A stretch of DNA of 54,221 nt. It comes from Parcubacteria bacterium C7867-002. GTDB taxonomy: Bacteria; Patescibacteriota; Minisyncoccia; Phycocordibacterales; PALSA-1337. A program made the position numbers and the translations under genes. This document shows positions 32,764-34,767 of this stretch, one piece after another. The notes below the pieces were generated by a model. The model saw only the letters and a program-made list of their open reading frames with translations. It had not been told where the DNA came from and ran no database searches. Numbering within the stretch: the first letter of the stretch is position 1; every line of letters begins with the position of its first letter. The stretch lies in contig LFCL01000009.1 in NCBI GenBank assembly GCA_001189105.1, positions 1 to 54,221 on the forward strand, written 5' to 3'.

Positions 32764-32791
32764 TTGACAAAAGCTGATACTCTGATAGAGT
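32764..32791 (+). promoter_or_regulatory. Candidate sigma70-type promoter for the scaffold + CRISPR transcript
   Basis: TTGACA (32764-32769), 16 nt, TAGAGT (32786-32791). The predicted TSS is about 32798, at the start of a repeat-like unit. Confidence 0.45.
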
Positions 32792-33003
32792 TTTAAAAGT
32801 TCCTCGACAATCAAAGAACTAAAGATTTTGAGAGGGATATCATTGTTTCTTCGGAAAAATAGGTATTCTTCTCAATCAACAAGCAGCTCTGCGACGTTTG
32901 GTCGTAGGGTATGCCCCCGTGCCCGGGCCGCAGGCTAGTAATAGCCTGATGAAGCTGGAATTAAATTCCAGAAAACCACTCACCTCCTCCTTTGTTTACA
33001 ACT

Positions 33004-33182
33004 ACCTCGAGACACCTATTTTAGGAGAGGGTGGTTGGGCACGAACAATCAGGTTGAACTTCCTGTCCGATTCACCTCGAGACACCTATTTTAGGAGAGG
33101 GTGGTTGGGCACTTTGGAGCACGTGAGTATGAGCTTCTCTTTGACCTCGAGACACCTCTTTTAGTTCTTTGATACCTGTTCT
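33004..33182 (+). CRISPR. Mini-CRISPR array: 2 identical 39-nt repeats, 1 degenerate terminal repeat, 2 x 31-nt spacers
   Basis: ACCTCGAGACACCTATTTTAGGAGAGGGTGGTTGGGCAC at 33004-33042 and 33074-33112 (period 70). The third unit at 33144 keeps the first 14 nt, then CTTTTAG, then diverges. The spacers are at 33043-33073 and 33113-33143. Confidence 0.75.
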
Positions 33183-33186
33183 TTCG

Positions 33187-33220
33187 AGCCTCGGACTTCA
33201 GCTGTCTGAGGCTTTTTCTT
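33187..33220 (+). terminator. Intrinsic terminator immediately after the array
   Basis: AGCCTCGGAC-TTCAGCT-GTCTGAGGCT (10-bp stem with one G:T) followed by TTTTTCTTT. Confidence 0.7.
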
Positions 33221-33489
33221 TGTACATCGCGACTCGTGTCGTAGACTCGGAAATTTCCAAGAAGGATACTTTCCATGATTTATGGCGTAAAGTAAGGCGA
33301 GTGAATTGAGTCGTAGCCAGTATTCCAGAGTTATGCAATAGCCAAGATTTTTATGAAAATAGGTTCGGGAAAGTTTTTTCTTGAGATAACCTCCTTCATA
33401 ACATCGACACCCTTCTATGAGCGAAATATAACCAGGCTTTCGATGGTTTTTGCATTCATATGTAATAAAGTATATCACTATAAAAATAC

Positions 33490-33518
33490 TTGTCTTAAAG
33501 CATAAACTATGGTAATGT
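33490..33518 (+). promoter_or_regulatory. Possible promoter of the TnpB/Cas12f-like gene
   Basis: TTGTCT, 17 nt, TAATGT. An RBS GAAAGGA lies 10 nt before the TTG start at 33542. Confidence 0.3.
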
Positions 33519-33541
33519 TTTTTTAGAAAGGAACCAGTATT

Positions 33542-34723
33542 TTGAAACAATCACAAGAAGCAAAAAACCGTTGGACACGAAAGACCTTTGGTCAAAAGGT
33601 CACACCGAGGCCGGAAGATCTCGAAAAACTTATTCGGATCAATGGTATCCTCAGTAAACTCTGGAACATGGCTGTCGAGCAGTGCAACATCTGGCTCGGT
33701 ATGCCAAAAGACTCCTCAGAGCGCCGATCCATAACTCCTATAAGCCTGAACTTCTGGCTTACTCCCACGAGAAACAATGACACCGATATCAATTCGGTAC
33801 CCGTGGTGCTTGAGCGTGAAATGCTTAGGCGCCTTGCAGGGGCTTTCAGTTCATATTTTGAACTCAAAAAGAAAGGCGATGCAAAGGCTCGTCCCCCTCG
33901 ACCAAAAGATCCTGAACACTCATTCATTACACTGACTTGGACGCAGGGATCTTTTAGTGTTGACGGTGATACGTTGTCTGCCTCGATAGGTGGACAGCAA
34001 AAAATCATATTCACTCTTGGTGAATACATTCGAGAGAAGCTCAGGATGCTTCCTGCCAAAGCGTGTGTTGCCCAAGTCACTGTCTCGAAGCGAGATGGAG
34101 AATTTTGGGCAAACTTTGTCTGTAACATACCAAAGGCGGAAACTCAGACACCGAAGCATTTGCTTGCCATTGATATGGGGTCCGGGGACATTGTCATGAG
34201 TTGTTCAAATGGAAGAGAGTACTCTCTTCCTACTCGCCGTCCGGACAAAAAGTGGCGCAAGGAAATTCGTGCGGTCGAAACCCGTCTCGAGTTATGTAAA
34301 AAGTATTCTCGCAGTTACAAACGACGAATGAAAGCTCGCCGAGTGATGCATAACAAGTCGCTTCACCAACACACTGATCATCAACGCAAAGTTGCGAATT
34401 GGATCATGAAACAAGGACTGACTGTGGTTGTGGGTAAGATGCATACGCGTCTAGGGCTCGCACAGTCTTCAGGAACAGCGGATCAGCACTGGGGTGTTCA
34501 AAACACTGGTTATGCCTTTCGGCTCCTCATCTTCATCAAAGAGAAGGCTGCCGAGTATGGCCTCACAGTACTAGAACTTCCAGACCCTCGTCGCAAAGGG
34601 GACTCAACTGATCCAACATCAAAATTCAATGCGTCTCGTGAACTCCTGAGGCAAGGTTGTACAAAACTCAACTTTAGCTTTCCTGATTCGTTCACAAAGG
34701 AGAAACCTCTTCTCGTACAATAA
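33542..34723 (+). CDS. Miniature TnpB/Cas12f-like RNA-guided protein; RuvC motifs II/III apparently substituted, zinc finger apparently absent
   Basis: 393 aa. TnpB-like order by eye: N-terminal TFGQKVTPRPEDLEKL...LWNMAVEQ; WED-type LAGAFSSYF...ARPPRPKD; RuvC-I LLAIDMGSGD (D211); VVVGKM where hhhEDL is expected (G298); KFNASRELL where D-x-NAA-x-N is expected (K361). No CxxC pairs are present. Confidence 0.7.
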   Translation: MKQSQEAKNRWTRKTFGQKVTPRPEDLEKLIRINGILSKLWNMAVEQCNIWLGMPKDSSERRSITPISLNFWLTPTRNNDTDINSVPVVLEREMLRRLAGAFSSYFELKKKGDAKARPPRPKDPEHSFITLTWTQGSFSVDGDTLSASIGGQQKIIFTLGEYIREKLRMLPAKACVAQVTVSKRDGEFWANFVCNIPKAETQTPKHLLAIDMGSGDIVMSCSNGREYSLPTRRPDKKWRKEIRAVETRLELCKKYSRSYKRRMKARRVMHNKSLHQHTDHQRKVANWIMKQGLTVVVGKMHTRLGLAQSSGTADQHWGVQNTGYAFRLLIFIKEKAAEYGLTVLELPDPRRKGDSTDPTSKFNASRELLRQGCTKLNFSFPDSFTKEKPLLVQ

Positions 34724-34741
34724 TCAAAACTTCAATCATCA

Positions 34742-34767
34742 AGGCGATCCAAAAGATCGCCTTTTTA
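34742..34767 (+). terminator. Intrinsic terminator of the TnpB/Cas12f-like gene
   Basis: AGGCGATC-CAAAA-GATCGCCT followed by TTTTT. Confidence 0.75.

Follow-up and report, generated by a model that had tools for sequence, protein, structure and literature searches.

Introduction

Cas12c, the effector of type V-C, is a large protein of about 1200-1300 aa with an intact RuvC site that is used for crRNA processing, and it is combined with short repeats and spacers. Cas12m (type V-M), with about 600 aa, belongs to a different clade; it is not known to use a tracrRNA and usually has no adaptation genes. Both are precedents for effectors free of DNase activity (PMC13565253, PMC11013384). Cas12c was described to silence by binding while the DNA remains uncut (cited in PMC13565253), and Cas12m is a compact protein acting as a DNA-binding roadblock instead of by cleavage (PMC11013384). 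A solo Cas1 has been described for types V-C and V-D (PMC10691335, PMC6977970), where type V-C is presented as a two-protein CRISPR system with a cas1-only adaptation module (PMC10691335) and its Cas1 as a mini-integrase (PMC6977970).

The Cas12f or Cas14 effectors of type V-F depend on a tracrRNA-like RNA and cleave DNA; their DED triad is intact, and a zinc finger is present. The greater Cas12f branch was reported to consist of array-only systems without Cas1 (PMC10691335). The dCas12f and dCas12f-sigmaE systems of Bacteroidetes contain miniature Cas12f-like proteins which have lost part of the RuvC site at the C-terminus; their CRISPR array is directly preceded by a guide scaffold that shows covariation, they lack Cas1, and the CRISPR-linked dCas12f guides sometimes match host promoters (PMC13472631). 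TldR proteins, for which RNA-guided binding at promoters was proposed, use a single adjacent guide RNA without a CRISPR array or Cas1 and are associated with fliC or oppF genes and prophages (PMC10705468). TranC (Jin et al. 2025), in the form in which it is cited in PMC13565253, comprises TnpB-sized active nucleases of recent transposon origin, in which the functions of an omegaRNA-like RNA are divided between a crRNA and a tracr-like part.

This paper describes a locus on a contig of Parcubacteria bacterium C7867-002 (LFCL01000009.1, positions 1 to 54,221), and the whole stretch of 54,221 nucleotides is referred to as the window. The locus is rather probably an adaptation-dead member of a Patescibacteria-specific family of miniature type V CRISPR-Cas systems. 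The family is a previously unannotated CRISPR-Cas system of tiny CPR bacteria with two genes, cas1 and the effector gene, and the proteins of the effector family carry only the labels "transposase" or "hypothetical" in public databases. A complete system would consist of a solo Cas1 truncated at the N-terminus, an effector of about 390-420 aa with the TnpB/Cas12f fold (372-477 aa across the family), and a single RNA transcription unit composed of promoter, scaffold of about 200 nt, repeat-spacer array, half repeat and terminator.

The RNA Unit

The features of the locus are listed in Table 1. The array consists of two identical 39-nt repeats, two spacers of 31 nt and a degenerate third repeat, of which only the first 21-24 nt or so are kept (92% identity). 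A terminal repeat reduced to its 5' half was likewise identified in the related loci L001, L004, L006 and L013, and two-repeat arrays are normal even where Cas1 is intact (L006, L010, L013, L020). No other copy of the 39-nt unit is present within the 54 kb (0 matches expected by chance).

Table 1. Features identified at the locus, with positions numbered from the first nucleotide of the window
Feature	Position	Strand	Remarks
Sigma-70-like promoter of the RNA unit	32764-32791	+	scan, 10/12, extended TG
TracrRNA/omegaRNA-like scaffold, ~200 nt	32798-33003	+	core 32822-32979; one unit with the array
Closing helix, 5' strand	32810-32823	+	predicted long-range pairing with 33160-33173
Scaffold anti-repeat GTGCCCGGGCC	32919-32929	+	predicted to pair with the repeat 3' end
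CRISPR repeat 1	33004-33042	+	3' end GGTTGGGCAC (33033-33042), predicted to pair with the scaffold anti-repeat
Spacer 1	33043-33073	+	matches the window's own chromosome at 53677-53707
CRISPR repeat 2	33074-33112	+	identical to repeat 1
Spacer 2	33113-33143	+	no target found
Terminal half-repeat (repeat match 33141-33164) and closing-helix 3' strand (33160-33173)	33144-33173	+	
cas1 pseudogene	33176-33459	-	identified by tblastn, E=1e-31
Intrinsic terminator of the RNA unit	33186-33220	+	scan: 11-bp stem, 6 GC pairs, T tract
TnpB/Cas12f-fold effector, 393 aa	33542-34723	+	D211 kept; Gly298 at RuvC-II; without zinc finger and RuvC-III
Intrinsic terminator of the effector gene	34741-34767	+	scan
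Candidate protospacer of spacer 1 with 5'-GTTT flank (53708-53711)	53677-53711	-	

A preliminary description, made from the nucleotide sequence alone, had proposed a self-contained RNA unit with its own promoter and its own terminator, and both elements were recovered by scans: the promoter as TTGACA-16-TAGAGT, and the strong terminator downstream of the array at the expected place. The same holds for the separate terminator of the effector gene. In the scan, the two terminators span 33186-33214 and 34741-34763. In the related loci, a TTGACA -35 box is located at the same distance 5' of the scaffold. The 3' tail of a convergent cas1 remnant reaches into this RNA unit's terminator, an arrangement that is repeated in L006.

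Between promoter and array, a conserved scaffold was identified. Using an nhmmer profile, a single copy was detected for the window, and each locus with usable flank had a copy next to its effector gene, while in Rfam no family matched the scaffold and only noise-level hits were obtained. The consensus structure (RNAalifold and pair counts) contains 39 pairs, with 93% paired in comparison to 44-53% when slid. The covariation score was 0.365 versus at most 0.134, none of 500 shuffles attained what was observed, and the MFE z-score was -4.5. The scaffold segment GURCCCGGGCC pairs with the 3' end of the repeat, and covariation supports both the structure and this anti-repeat: the pair col147:291, retained in 13 of 13 sequences, is A-U in eight of them and G-C in five. 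On the basis of the covarying predicted duplex, the scaffold has an anti-repeat for the repeat, as is characteristic for the tracrRNA of type V-F. The scaffold may act like a tracrRNA or the body of an omegaRNA, in a transcript that is possibly processed, with GURCCCGGGCC base-pairing to the last 10 nt or so of each repeat. Since this pairing would directly adjoin the spacer, the guide would come to lie on the 3' side, an arrangement known from TnpB and Cas12f.

The 5' part of the scaffold resembles the repeat. In the window, a perfect inverted repeat of 14 nt forms a predicted closing helix (duplex z=-4.6). The helix recurs with different sequences in L002 (twice), L015 and L020, while L001 shows a weaker form of it. 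A pairing of the scaffold with the 5' half of the repeat (AAAATAGGT with ACCTATTTT) is present in the window and is not claimed here, because by eye it is not conserved in L001. A second anti-repeat, AACCAC:GUGGUU, is present in the MFE fold of the window, where it competes with the RNAalifold extension; its two strands hardly vary, which leaves no room for covariation. Individual sequences clearly show stem 2 of the scaffold, for which no covariation count is given because the MAFFT alignment has slipped in this region.

The Effector Protein

The effector gene starts with TTG and encodes a protein of 393 aa, on the same strand downstream of the array. The TnpB/Cas12f fold, which had been suggested by eye from the order of motifs, was recovered by profile and structure searches. 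With the NCBIfam model guided_TnpB, an E-value of 2e-16 was obtained (60 bits, with a curated cut-off of 100), and with the PADLOC model Cas12_x1 (CAS-V-F) an E-value of 5.8e-39 (133 bits), followed by Cas12f with 2e-12, the PADLOC models being without curated cut-offs. The IS607 and IS200 TnpB models gave about 24 bits (cut-offs 350 and 425) and Pfam OrfB_IS605 gave 25.5 (cut-off 30.5), so that the protein stays below the curated cut-offs for the TnpB family. Using Foldseek, the AF2 model (pLDDT 86.5) was matched with E~1e-13 to ISDra2 TnpB and AsCas12f, among the top structural matches. In a search of the family profile against PDB sequences, the best natural matches were the ISDra2 and ISFba1 TnpBs, and no dCas12f or Cas12f chain was found at E<0.01. 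The effector is therefore a single protein with the TnpB-type RuvC (RNase H-like) fold that is expected for type V.

The canonical RuvC D-E-D triad of type V is not present. The motif AIDMGSGD, which had been proposed as RuvC-I, contains D211, and this residue aligns with D191 of ISDra2 TnpB. At the position of the canonical RuvC-II Glu, Gly298 is found, and the family has G or S there; all of about 25 core clusters read D...G[K/E] and contain no CxxC. The family was aligned by hhalign to zinc-finger-bearing TnpB relatives (probability 100%, E=6e-46), with the homology ending at beta5. The zinc-finger/RuvC-III segment has no counterpart in this alignment and is replaced by a family-specific tail; the by-eye equivalent of the RuvC-III Asp is an invariant Lys (K361), and no conserved acidic replacement for this Asp was identified among the family. 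In the window, the open reading frame is full length and every family-invariant residue is kept.

Because of the Gly at the canonical RuvC-II position and the absence of zinc finger and RuvC-III, the effector is probably a DNA-binding protein only, which would recognize PAM-flanked DNA without cutting it. Interference would then occur by blocking transcription or replication, as by Cas12c, Cas12m, dCas12f and TldR. Some residual nuclease activity is conceivable, given that D211 and D348 are invariant in the family and that conservation within the protein is highest in a lid-like loop, residues 303-323. In an alignment by eye, D348 corresponds to the acidic residue which "RuvC-II-rearranged" TnpBs have in a relocated position.

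The cas1 Remnant and the Related Loci

According to the preliminary description, no cas1 was present anywhere in the window. Using Cas1 from related loci in tblastn, a minus-strand cas1 remnant was identified between array and effector gene (E=1e-31), with 74% identity over the C-terminal 70 aa. The pseudogene consists of the N-terminal 30 codons or so, with a stop at codon 15, and the C-terminal 70 codons, and a 451-bp internal deletion has taken out the catalytic core. It is collinear with L006, of which positions 2279-2729 are absent from the window.

About 20 related Patescibacteria loci were found to contain homologous effectors, an intact solo mini-Cas1 of 238-253 aa and arrays with homologous repeats. 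All relatives come from CPR/Patescibacteria MAGs, in agreement with the CPR-type host that had been assumed earlier. Like the window, the related loci with sufficient flank have a CRISPR array beside the effector gene, a conserved linkage as expected for type V. The intact mini-Cas1 adjoins the effector in L001, L004, L005, L006, L010, L013, L020 and L027, and the intact homologues keep the catalytic E/H/D motifs. Among the Pfam calls for the flanks of L001, L004-L006 and L027, all of which contain Cas1, there was neither cas2 nor cas4, and no TnpA Pfam was found among the neighbouring genes of the related loci examined. L020 and L021 are 98.7% identical and have no spacer in common, so the family still adapts. 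In L015, L002 and L017/L024, cas1 is decayed or was undetected while scaffold, array and effector persist, with L015 representing a second, independent decay. L026 was not counted as independent, since with 100% identity to the window it represents the same genome; L016, obtained in a metagenome motif scan, was discarded as a chance match inside GC-rich coding DNA.

An adaptation gene is thus represented in the window by the cas1 pseudogene alone, and in the family by the intact solo mini-Cas1. Since the pseudogene is recent and most relatives have an intact cas1, the layout is explained by secondary decay of a complete CRISPR-Cas system. Of the earlier interpretation, the TnpB/Cas12f fold, the self-contained RNA unit and the CPR setting were retained, while the absence of an adaptation module as a primitive state was not. 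The scaffold RNA of 200 nt, the replacement of the RuvC-II Glu, the loss of zinc finger and RuvC-III and the self-matching spacer had been missed in that first reading. In the window genome, cas1 has been destroyed by the deletion and the stop codon, which leaves the two spacers frozen.

Targets of the Spacers

Spacer 1 is identical in 27 of 31 positions to a site on the window's own chromosome, whereas 300 shuffled spacers reach 22/31 at most. The site is located in the divergent intergenic region between a T2SSE/PilB-like (type IV pilus-like) operon and an adenylate-kinase-like gene. Mismatches are present at guide positions 2 and 4, at which type V seeds are usually intolerant. In a strict promoter scan, no promoter was found at the site; a relaxed scan gave weak candidate -10 boxes overlapping it, with 8/12 consensus. 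Because the promoter elements are only such relaxed matches, promoter occlusion is a hypothetical effect of the spacer. With regard to the TldR feature of a guide directed to a host promoter near a TAM, the observations are the 27/31 match with its 5'-GTTT flank and promoter elements that match the consensus only weakly.

For spacer 2, no match above chance level was found in the window. Among IMG/VR viral contigs, no exact match was obtained to seven probes of 20-22 nt, which covered the two spacers of the window and three spacers of L001. A self-hit of L001 spacer 4, with a 20-nt core and 19/31 overall, is located in a coding region and corresponds to the chance level of shuffled spacers, and was rejected. 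Apart from the self-match of spacer 1, no protospacer was found for any spacer searched. Since the spacers are frozen and spacer 1 matches the pilus/adk intergenic region, the unit may now act as an RNA-guided repressor, or may be becoming one.

Comparison to Described Systems

Like type V-C, the family has cas1 as its only adaptation gene. In contrast to the large Cas12c, its effector has 393 aa in the window, lacks RuvC-III and zinc finger, and is combined with a ~200-nt scaffold, 39-nt repeats and 31-nt spacers; beyond the shared fold, no sequence relationship to Cas12c was detected. Cas12f is similar in size and in the dependence on a tracrRNA-like RNA, and the best profile match is to a V-F model, Cas12_x1 of PADLOC, for which no curated cut-off exists. 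However, the C-terminal zinc finger and RuvC-III, which make Cas12f an active nuclease, are absent from the core family, and unlike the array-only V-F branch the family contains a solo mini-Cas1.

With dCas12f, the family shares the miniature Cas12f-like protein with its C-terminal loss and the array preceded by a covarying scaffold. The relationship to dCas12f (9n9c) is at the level of the fold, with 15% identity (Foldseek), and the present family differs by its occurrence in CPR bacteria, its linkage to Cas1 and its spacer turnover. The TnpB-like fold with a deteriorated RuvC site and a lost zinc-finger/RuvC C-terminus is also found in TldR, and RNA-guided binding at promoters is common to the mode proposed for TldR and the reading given here; the array and Cas1 set the family apart from TldR with its single guide. 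The proposed effector resembles Cas12m in being compact and in its binding instead of cleaving. TranC is comparable in its TnpB-like size and its split RNA, whereas the family has a degenerate RuvC site, its own Cas1 and no detected transposon context. In TnpB systems, the omegaRNA is located at the 3' end of the gene, while in the window the RNA is transcribed from a unit of its own that precedes the gene. A transposon context as for TnpB/omegaRNA was not found, with no TnpA Pfam among the neighbours in the loci examined and a single copy in the window.

Interpretation of the Locus

For the function of the unit, it can tentatively be proposed that a two-protein adaptive system, with a solo mini-Cas1, a nuclease-dead effector of about 400 aa and a tracr-array transcript, was caught turning from immunity to TldR-like repression. 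The frozen spacer 1 would direct the dead effector to the promoter region of the divergent pilus-like operon and the adenylate-kinase-like gene. An unlikely alternative to a binding-only effector is a nuclease-active immune family, in which D211, the relocated D348 and an unrecognised third residue would form a rearranged RuvC site, and in which the seed mismatches would prevent self-cleavage. In the zinc-finger-bearing relatives, too, the canonical RuvC-II position is occupied by Gly, and beta5 is followed by an acidic D/N-E, with which the invariant D348 is aligned; rearranged yet active TnpB sites have been documented (PMC10691335, PMC10705468). The strong conservation of D211 and the lid loop agrees with this explanation, and the mismatches that the guide has at positions 2 and 4 resemble escape mutations. 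However, the RuvC-III Asp has no conserved acidic replacement, the segment carrying it is absent, and by eye K361 is found in its place. In TnpB, mutation of any DED residue abolished cleavage (PMC10705468), and a similar C-terminal loss defines dCas12f and TldR (PMC13472631, PMC10705468).

That the whole unit is a non-functional relic in this genome, with the self-match left over from an accidental self-acquisition, is a doubtful explanation. It would account for a cas1 that is already a pseudogene, for an array of only two spacers, for an imperfect self-match and for the missing target of spacer 2 in the window and in viral contigs. In a relic, however, neither the full-length effector with all of its family-invariant residues nor the intact and conserved promoter, scaffold, anti-repeat, closing helix and terminators would be expected; two-repeat arrays are also normal in the Cas1-intact loci, and the other loci with decayed or undetected cas1 likewise keep the remaining parts. 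In the preliminary description, the locus was regarded as a primitive form linking TnpB/omegaRNA to type V, in which an adaptation module had been absent from the beginning; this is now very improbable. The effector is TnpB-sized and, among solved structures, by sequence closest to ISDra2-type TnpB, the omegaRNA-like scaffold with its repeat-like 5' part is co-transcribed with the array by prediction, and TranC-type intermediates exist (PMC13565253). For the locus in the window, this reading is contradicted by the cas1 pseudogene, which is collinear with intact relatives, and further by the cas1 of most relatives, the spacer turnover in the family and the absence of TnpA Pfams in the loci examined, with a single copy in the window.

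Conclusions

If the inferences hold, the family unites a TnpB-sized effector of about 400 aa, the degenerate RuvC site of which implies binding-only action, with a solo truncated Cas1 driving spacer turnover and with scaffold and array on a single transcript. These four features are known separately, and a joint description was not found in the comparison with types V-C, V-F and V-M, dCas12f, TldR and TranC; the family may correspond to one of the types V-U6 to V-U45 (Altae-Tran et al. 2023). The two-protein system of mini-Cas1 and effector would, if true, be the smallest adaptive CRISPR-Cas system known, and would bear on the minimum size of such a system. It would further represent a CPR example of non-cutting immunity of the Cas12c/Cas12m type, and could serve as a natural CRISPRi chassis of very small size. 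The genes on either side of the self-match of spacer 1 are of a kind considered relevant to the epibiotic life of CPR bacteria. With its lost adaptation and its self-matching spacer, the locus in the window would be a concrete CRISPR unit on the proposed route from immunity to RNA-guided regulation.

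Array, promoter and effector in the window

The short array, its promoter and terminators and the 393-aa open reading frame reported in the preliminary description were all recovered (see the table). The 39-nt repeat is not a dispersed element in the window, where no copies were found outside the array (chance expectation 0), and both window spacers comprise 31 nt. In related Patescibacteria loci, homologous 39-nt repeats with the 3' end GGTGGTNGGGYAC and spacers of 30-32 nt accompany the effector gene. Two repeats followed by a 5' half repeat represent the usual short array, also in loci with an intact cas1.

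Coordinates of the features of the array-effector locus in the window
Feature	Position	Strand	Remarks
Promoter TTGACA-16-TAGAGT	32764-32791		promoter scan, 10/12, extended TG
CRISPR repeat, 39 nt, two identical copies	33004-33042, 33074-33112		direct repeats in sequence
Third, partial repeat	33141-33164		only first ~24 nt kept, 92% identity
Terminators	33186-33214, 34741-34763		terminator scan
cas1 remnant, C-terminal 70 aa	33385-33176	minus	74% identity to Cas1 of related locus L006, E=1e-31
cas1 remnant, N-terminal ~30 aa	33459-33370	minus	different frame from C-terminal part
Effector ORF, 393 aa, TTG start	33542-34723

The effector is a member of the TnpB/Cas12f fold, as had been proposed. 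It was matched by NCBIfam guided_TnpB (E=1.9e-16; 60 bits, under the curated cut-off of 100), Pfam OrfB_IS605 (E=1.6e-5) and the PADLOC type V-F effector profile Cas12_x1 (E=5.8e-39). The best PDB matches of an AlphaFold2 model built with 24 homologs as input (mean pLDDT 86.5) were ISDra2 TnpB (E=8e-14), AsCas12f, SpCas12f1 and dCas12f. In the family profile, D211 aligns with ISDra2 D191, which bears out AIDMGSGD as RuvC-I. Homologs with 34-74% identity, named 'transposase' or 'hypothetical' in public databases, originate from Saccharibacteria, Taylorbacteria and other Patescibacteria MAGs. Gene neighbourhoods vary between the related loci, and no TnpA is among the Pfam calls available for the neighbouring genes.

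Downstream, a 47-nt direct repeat (34774-34820 and 35311-35357, 96% identical) contains the GC-rich hairpin AAAGCACCCGACCTCGGGTGCTTT, and its copies look like duplicated bidirectional terminators. The 147-aa ORF between them (34872-35315) has no Pfam match and appears membrane protein-like by eye. A single tRNA gene (23674-23745) is the sole Rfam gathering-level match in the 54 kb.

A conserved scaffold RNA

The scaffold RNA is a component overlooked in the preliminary description. A TTGACA promoter and a conserved sequence of ~200 nt precede every array of the family loci, and a motif derived from this sequence retrieved 10 more genuine loci in a metagenome search. When loci were searched with the scaffold profile, all those whose flank could be used had a copy adjoining the effector, and the window contained a single one (32822-32979); no Rfam family matched the scaffold. 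For 13 non-redundant sequences, RNAalifold predicted several stems and a duplex in which GURCCCGGGCC of the scaffold (window 32919-32929) pairs with the terminal ~10 nt at the repeat 3' end. In this structure, 93% of cells pair, compared to 44-53% with slid partners; the covariation score is 0.365 against at most 0.134, and none of 500 shuffles reached the observed value. At the anti-repeat pair 147:291, eight sequences have A-U and five have G-C, and none breaks the pairing. The same closing pairing was seen when the window scaffold was folded with repeat 1 and spacer 1 (z=-4.5). Additionally, a perfect 14-nt helix (z=-4.6) is predicted between the transcript 5' end (32810-32823) and the trailer past the half repeat (33160-33173), which recurs in other loci with differing sequences.

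The 5' part of the scaffold (32805-32840) resembles the repeat at 33004-33042, with CCTCGAC...ATTTTGAGAGGG compared to CCTCGAGAC...ATTTTAGGAGAGGG; this likeness is compatible with an array born from a duplicated segment of an omegaRNA-like ancestor. In some loci, two complete promoter-scaffold-array modules are present. Those of L002/L007 (2255-2904, plus; 3454-3879, minus) converge in L002, with one spacer in common and an internally duplicated spacer block in one array, while those of L001 (2292-3049 and 5373-5777) flank cas1 and the effector.

A cas1 remnant and intact cas1 in related loci

Using Cas1 proteins of related loci as tblastn queries, a cas1 remnant was identified on the minus strand between array and effector (33459-33176), contradicting the earlier statement that the window contains no cas1. 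Apart from a 451-bp deletion inside cas1, within which the catalytic motifs fall, the window and L006 are collinear; in addition, a stop is present at codon 15. Judged from this sequence comparison, the window locus is not primitively Cas1-less. The proposed intermediate with no adaptation module thus has partial support: the TnpB/Cas12f-fold effector and the self-contained RNA unit stand, but not a primitively missing module, given the remnant and the intact cas1 of relatives.

Intact mini-Cas1 adjoins the effector in L001, L004, L005, L006, L010, L013, L020 and L027. These homologs comprise 238-253 aa and have preserved the E, H and D motifs; the Cas1 model was matched only from position ~109 of 327, showing that the N-terminal domain is missing. 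L020 and L021 share 98.7% identity across effector and scaffold and no spacers, so Cas1-bearing members keep turning over spacers. L015 retains scaffold, two-spacer array and effector, as in the window, beside a cas1 (2391-2636) with an internal deletion, detectable only at residues ~1-50 and ~165-238; by sequence, this is a second, independent loss. No Cas1 was found in L002 or L017/L024, and neither cas2 nor cas4 is among the Pfam calls for neighbouring genes in related loci where such calls exist.

Just upstream of the remnant start, a promoter-like site on the minus strand (33469-33498, 9/12 with extended TG) is probably the old cas1 promoter, still intact. In L004, cas1 (223-939) lies between inverted copies (51-121, plus; 1012-1082, minus) of a CRISPR repeat with the same 31-nt sequence, which points to either a duplication in inverted orientation or a cas1 segment able to invert.

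Catalytic site of the effector family

A motif survey of a 24-member alignment and ~25 core clusters retrieved by searching exhaustively with a profile revealed that the canonical RuvC-II Glu is replaced family-wide, by Gly in nearly all members, inside the conserved VVGKxxTRLGL; a CxxC zinc finger was found in no member. When the family was compared, profile against profile, with TnpB relatives that have the zinc finger (probability 100%, E=6e-46), homology stopped at beta5 (family position ~347), and the zinc-finger/RuvC-III segment has no counterpart in the family. A family-specific tail of ~45 aa follows (DPxRxG...SKFxASRxLL), and an invariant Lys (K361) occupies the expected RuvC-III Asp position in an alignment by eye. 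A comparable loss defines TldR (PMC10705468) and dCas12f (PMC13472631). Certain zinc-finger-bearing relatives also carry Gly at RuvC-II, plus an acidic D/N-E after beta5, with which the invariant D348 of the family aligns; this arrangement resembles 'RuvC-II-rearranged' TnpBs (PMC10691335). RuvC-II may have been relocated rather than lost, so that the dead-nuclease argument leans mainly on the absent RuvC-III.

Conservation within the family peaks in the loop after RuvC-II (residues 303-323, window 34448-34510; RLGLAxSxGTxDQHWGVQNTGY), which was nevertheless modelled at pLDDT<50. The loop may serve as a lid or contact nucleic acids; the presumed loss of nuclease activity does not account for its conservation. 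The deep profile search also yielded a larger sister group (P0054-P0089, ~400-450 aa) without RuvC-I Asp (xALGAS) and without zinc finger, whose members give the impression of TnpB-like proteins that have been inactivated completely.

Match of spacer 1 elsewhere in the window

Spacer 1 is identical at 27 of 31 positions to window 53677-53707 (minus), with mismatches at guide positions 2, 4, 18 and 25; shuffled spacers reached at most 22. On the protospacer strand, the 5' flank reads GAGTTT and is T-rich, as are TnpB TAMs and the PAMs of type V systems. The match might reflect regulation, an escape from self-targeting or a spacer acquired from a related strain. The site is intergenic, flanked by a T2SSE/PilB-like and T2SSF operon and a divergently oriented adenylate-kinase-like gene; weak candidate -10 boxes (8/12) overlap it in both directions, while a strict promoter scan identified no promoter there. 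No other spacer had a credible target: none was found for spacer 2 in the window, and seven 20-22-nt probes from both window spacers and three L001 spacers had no exact match in IMG/VR.

The type IV pilus/T2SS-like operon (50003-53544, minus), in whose upstream region the match lies, encodes a T2SSE ATPase (E=1e-105) and T2SSF; a further product, of 464 aa, has a borderline match to the LVIVD repeat (20.0 bits; cut-off 20.2).

Proposed mechanism and comparison to known systems

From one promoter, a ~420-nt transcript comprising scaffold, array and half repeat would be produced. The scaffold would serve as tracrRNA or omegaRNA body. It would pair with the guide-adjacent 3' end of the repeat, within the same molecule (in cis) for the first unit, or in trans once the transcript is processed. 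The effector would bind the scaffold/guide RNA, then recognise PAM-flanked DNA and block the target without cutting. Given the loss of zinc finger and RuvC-III, blocking is the most likely action of the effector on its target, as shown for Cas12m (PMC11013384), dCas12f (PMC13472631), TldR (PMC10705468) and Cas12c (PMC13565253). We infer binding-only activity, RNA processing and regulation.

Type V-C, with a solo Cas1 and a DNase-free effector, is most alike in working, but the family effector is small, unlike that of V-C. CRISPR-linked dCas12f also works alike, without a close sequence relation. V-F and TnpB are closest in fold and profile matches; the family lacks the zinc finger and RuvC-III of the former and the transposon context of the latter, and differs from TldR by having arrays and Cas1. 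In this comparison with V-F, TnpB, TldR, V-C and dCas12f, the family misses defining features of each. In PMC10691335, the passage from TnpB to type V is counted as about 50 independent captures, and adaptation genes were captured at least 12 times; most small type V variants are array-only and V-C/V-D cas1-only. With an intact Cas1, members of the family would form an adaptive system, which in the window would be frozen.
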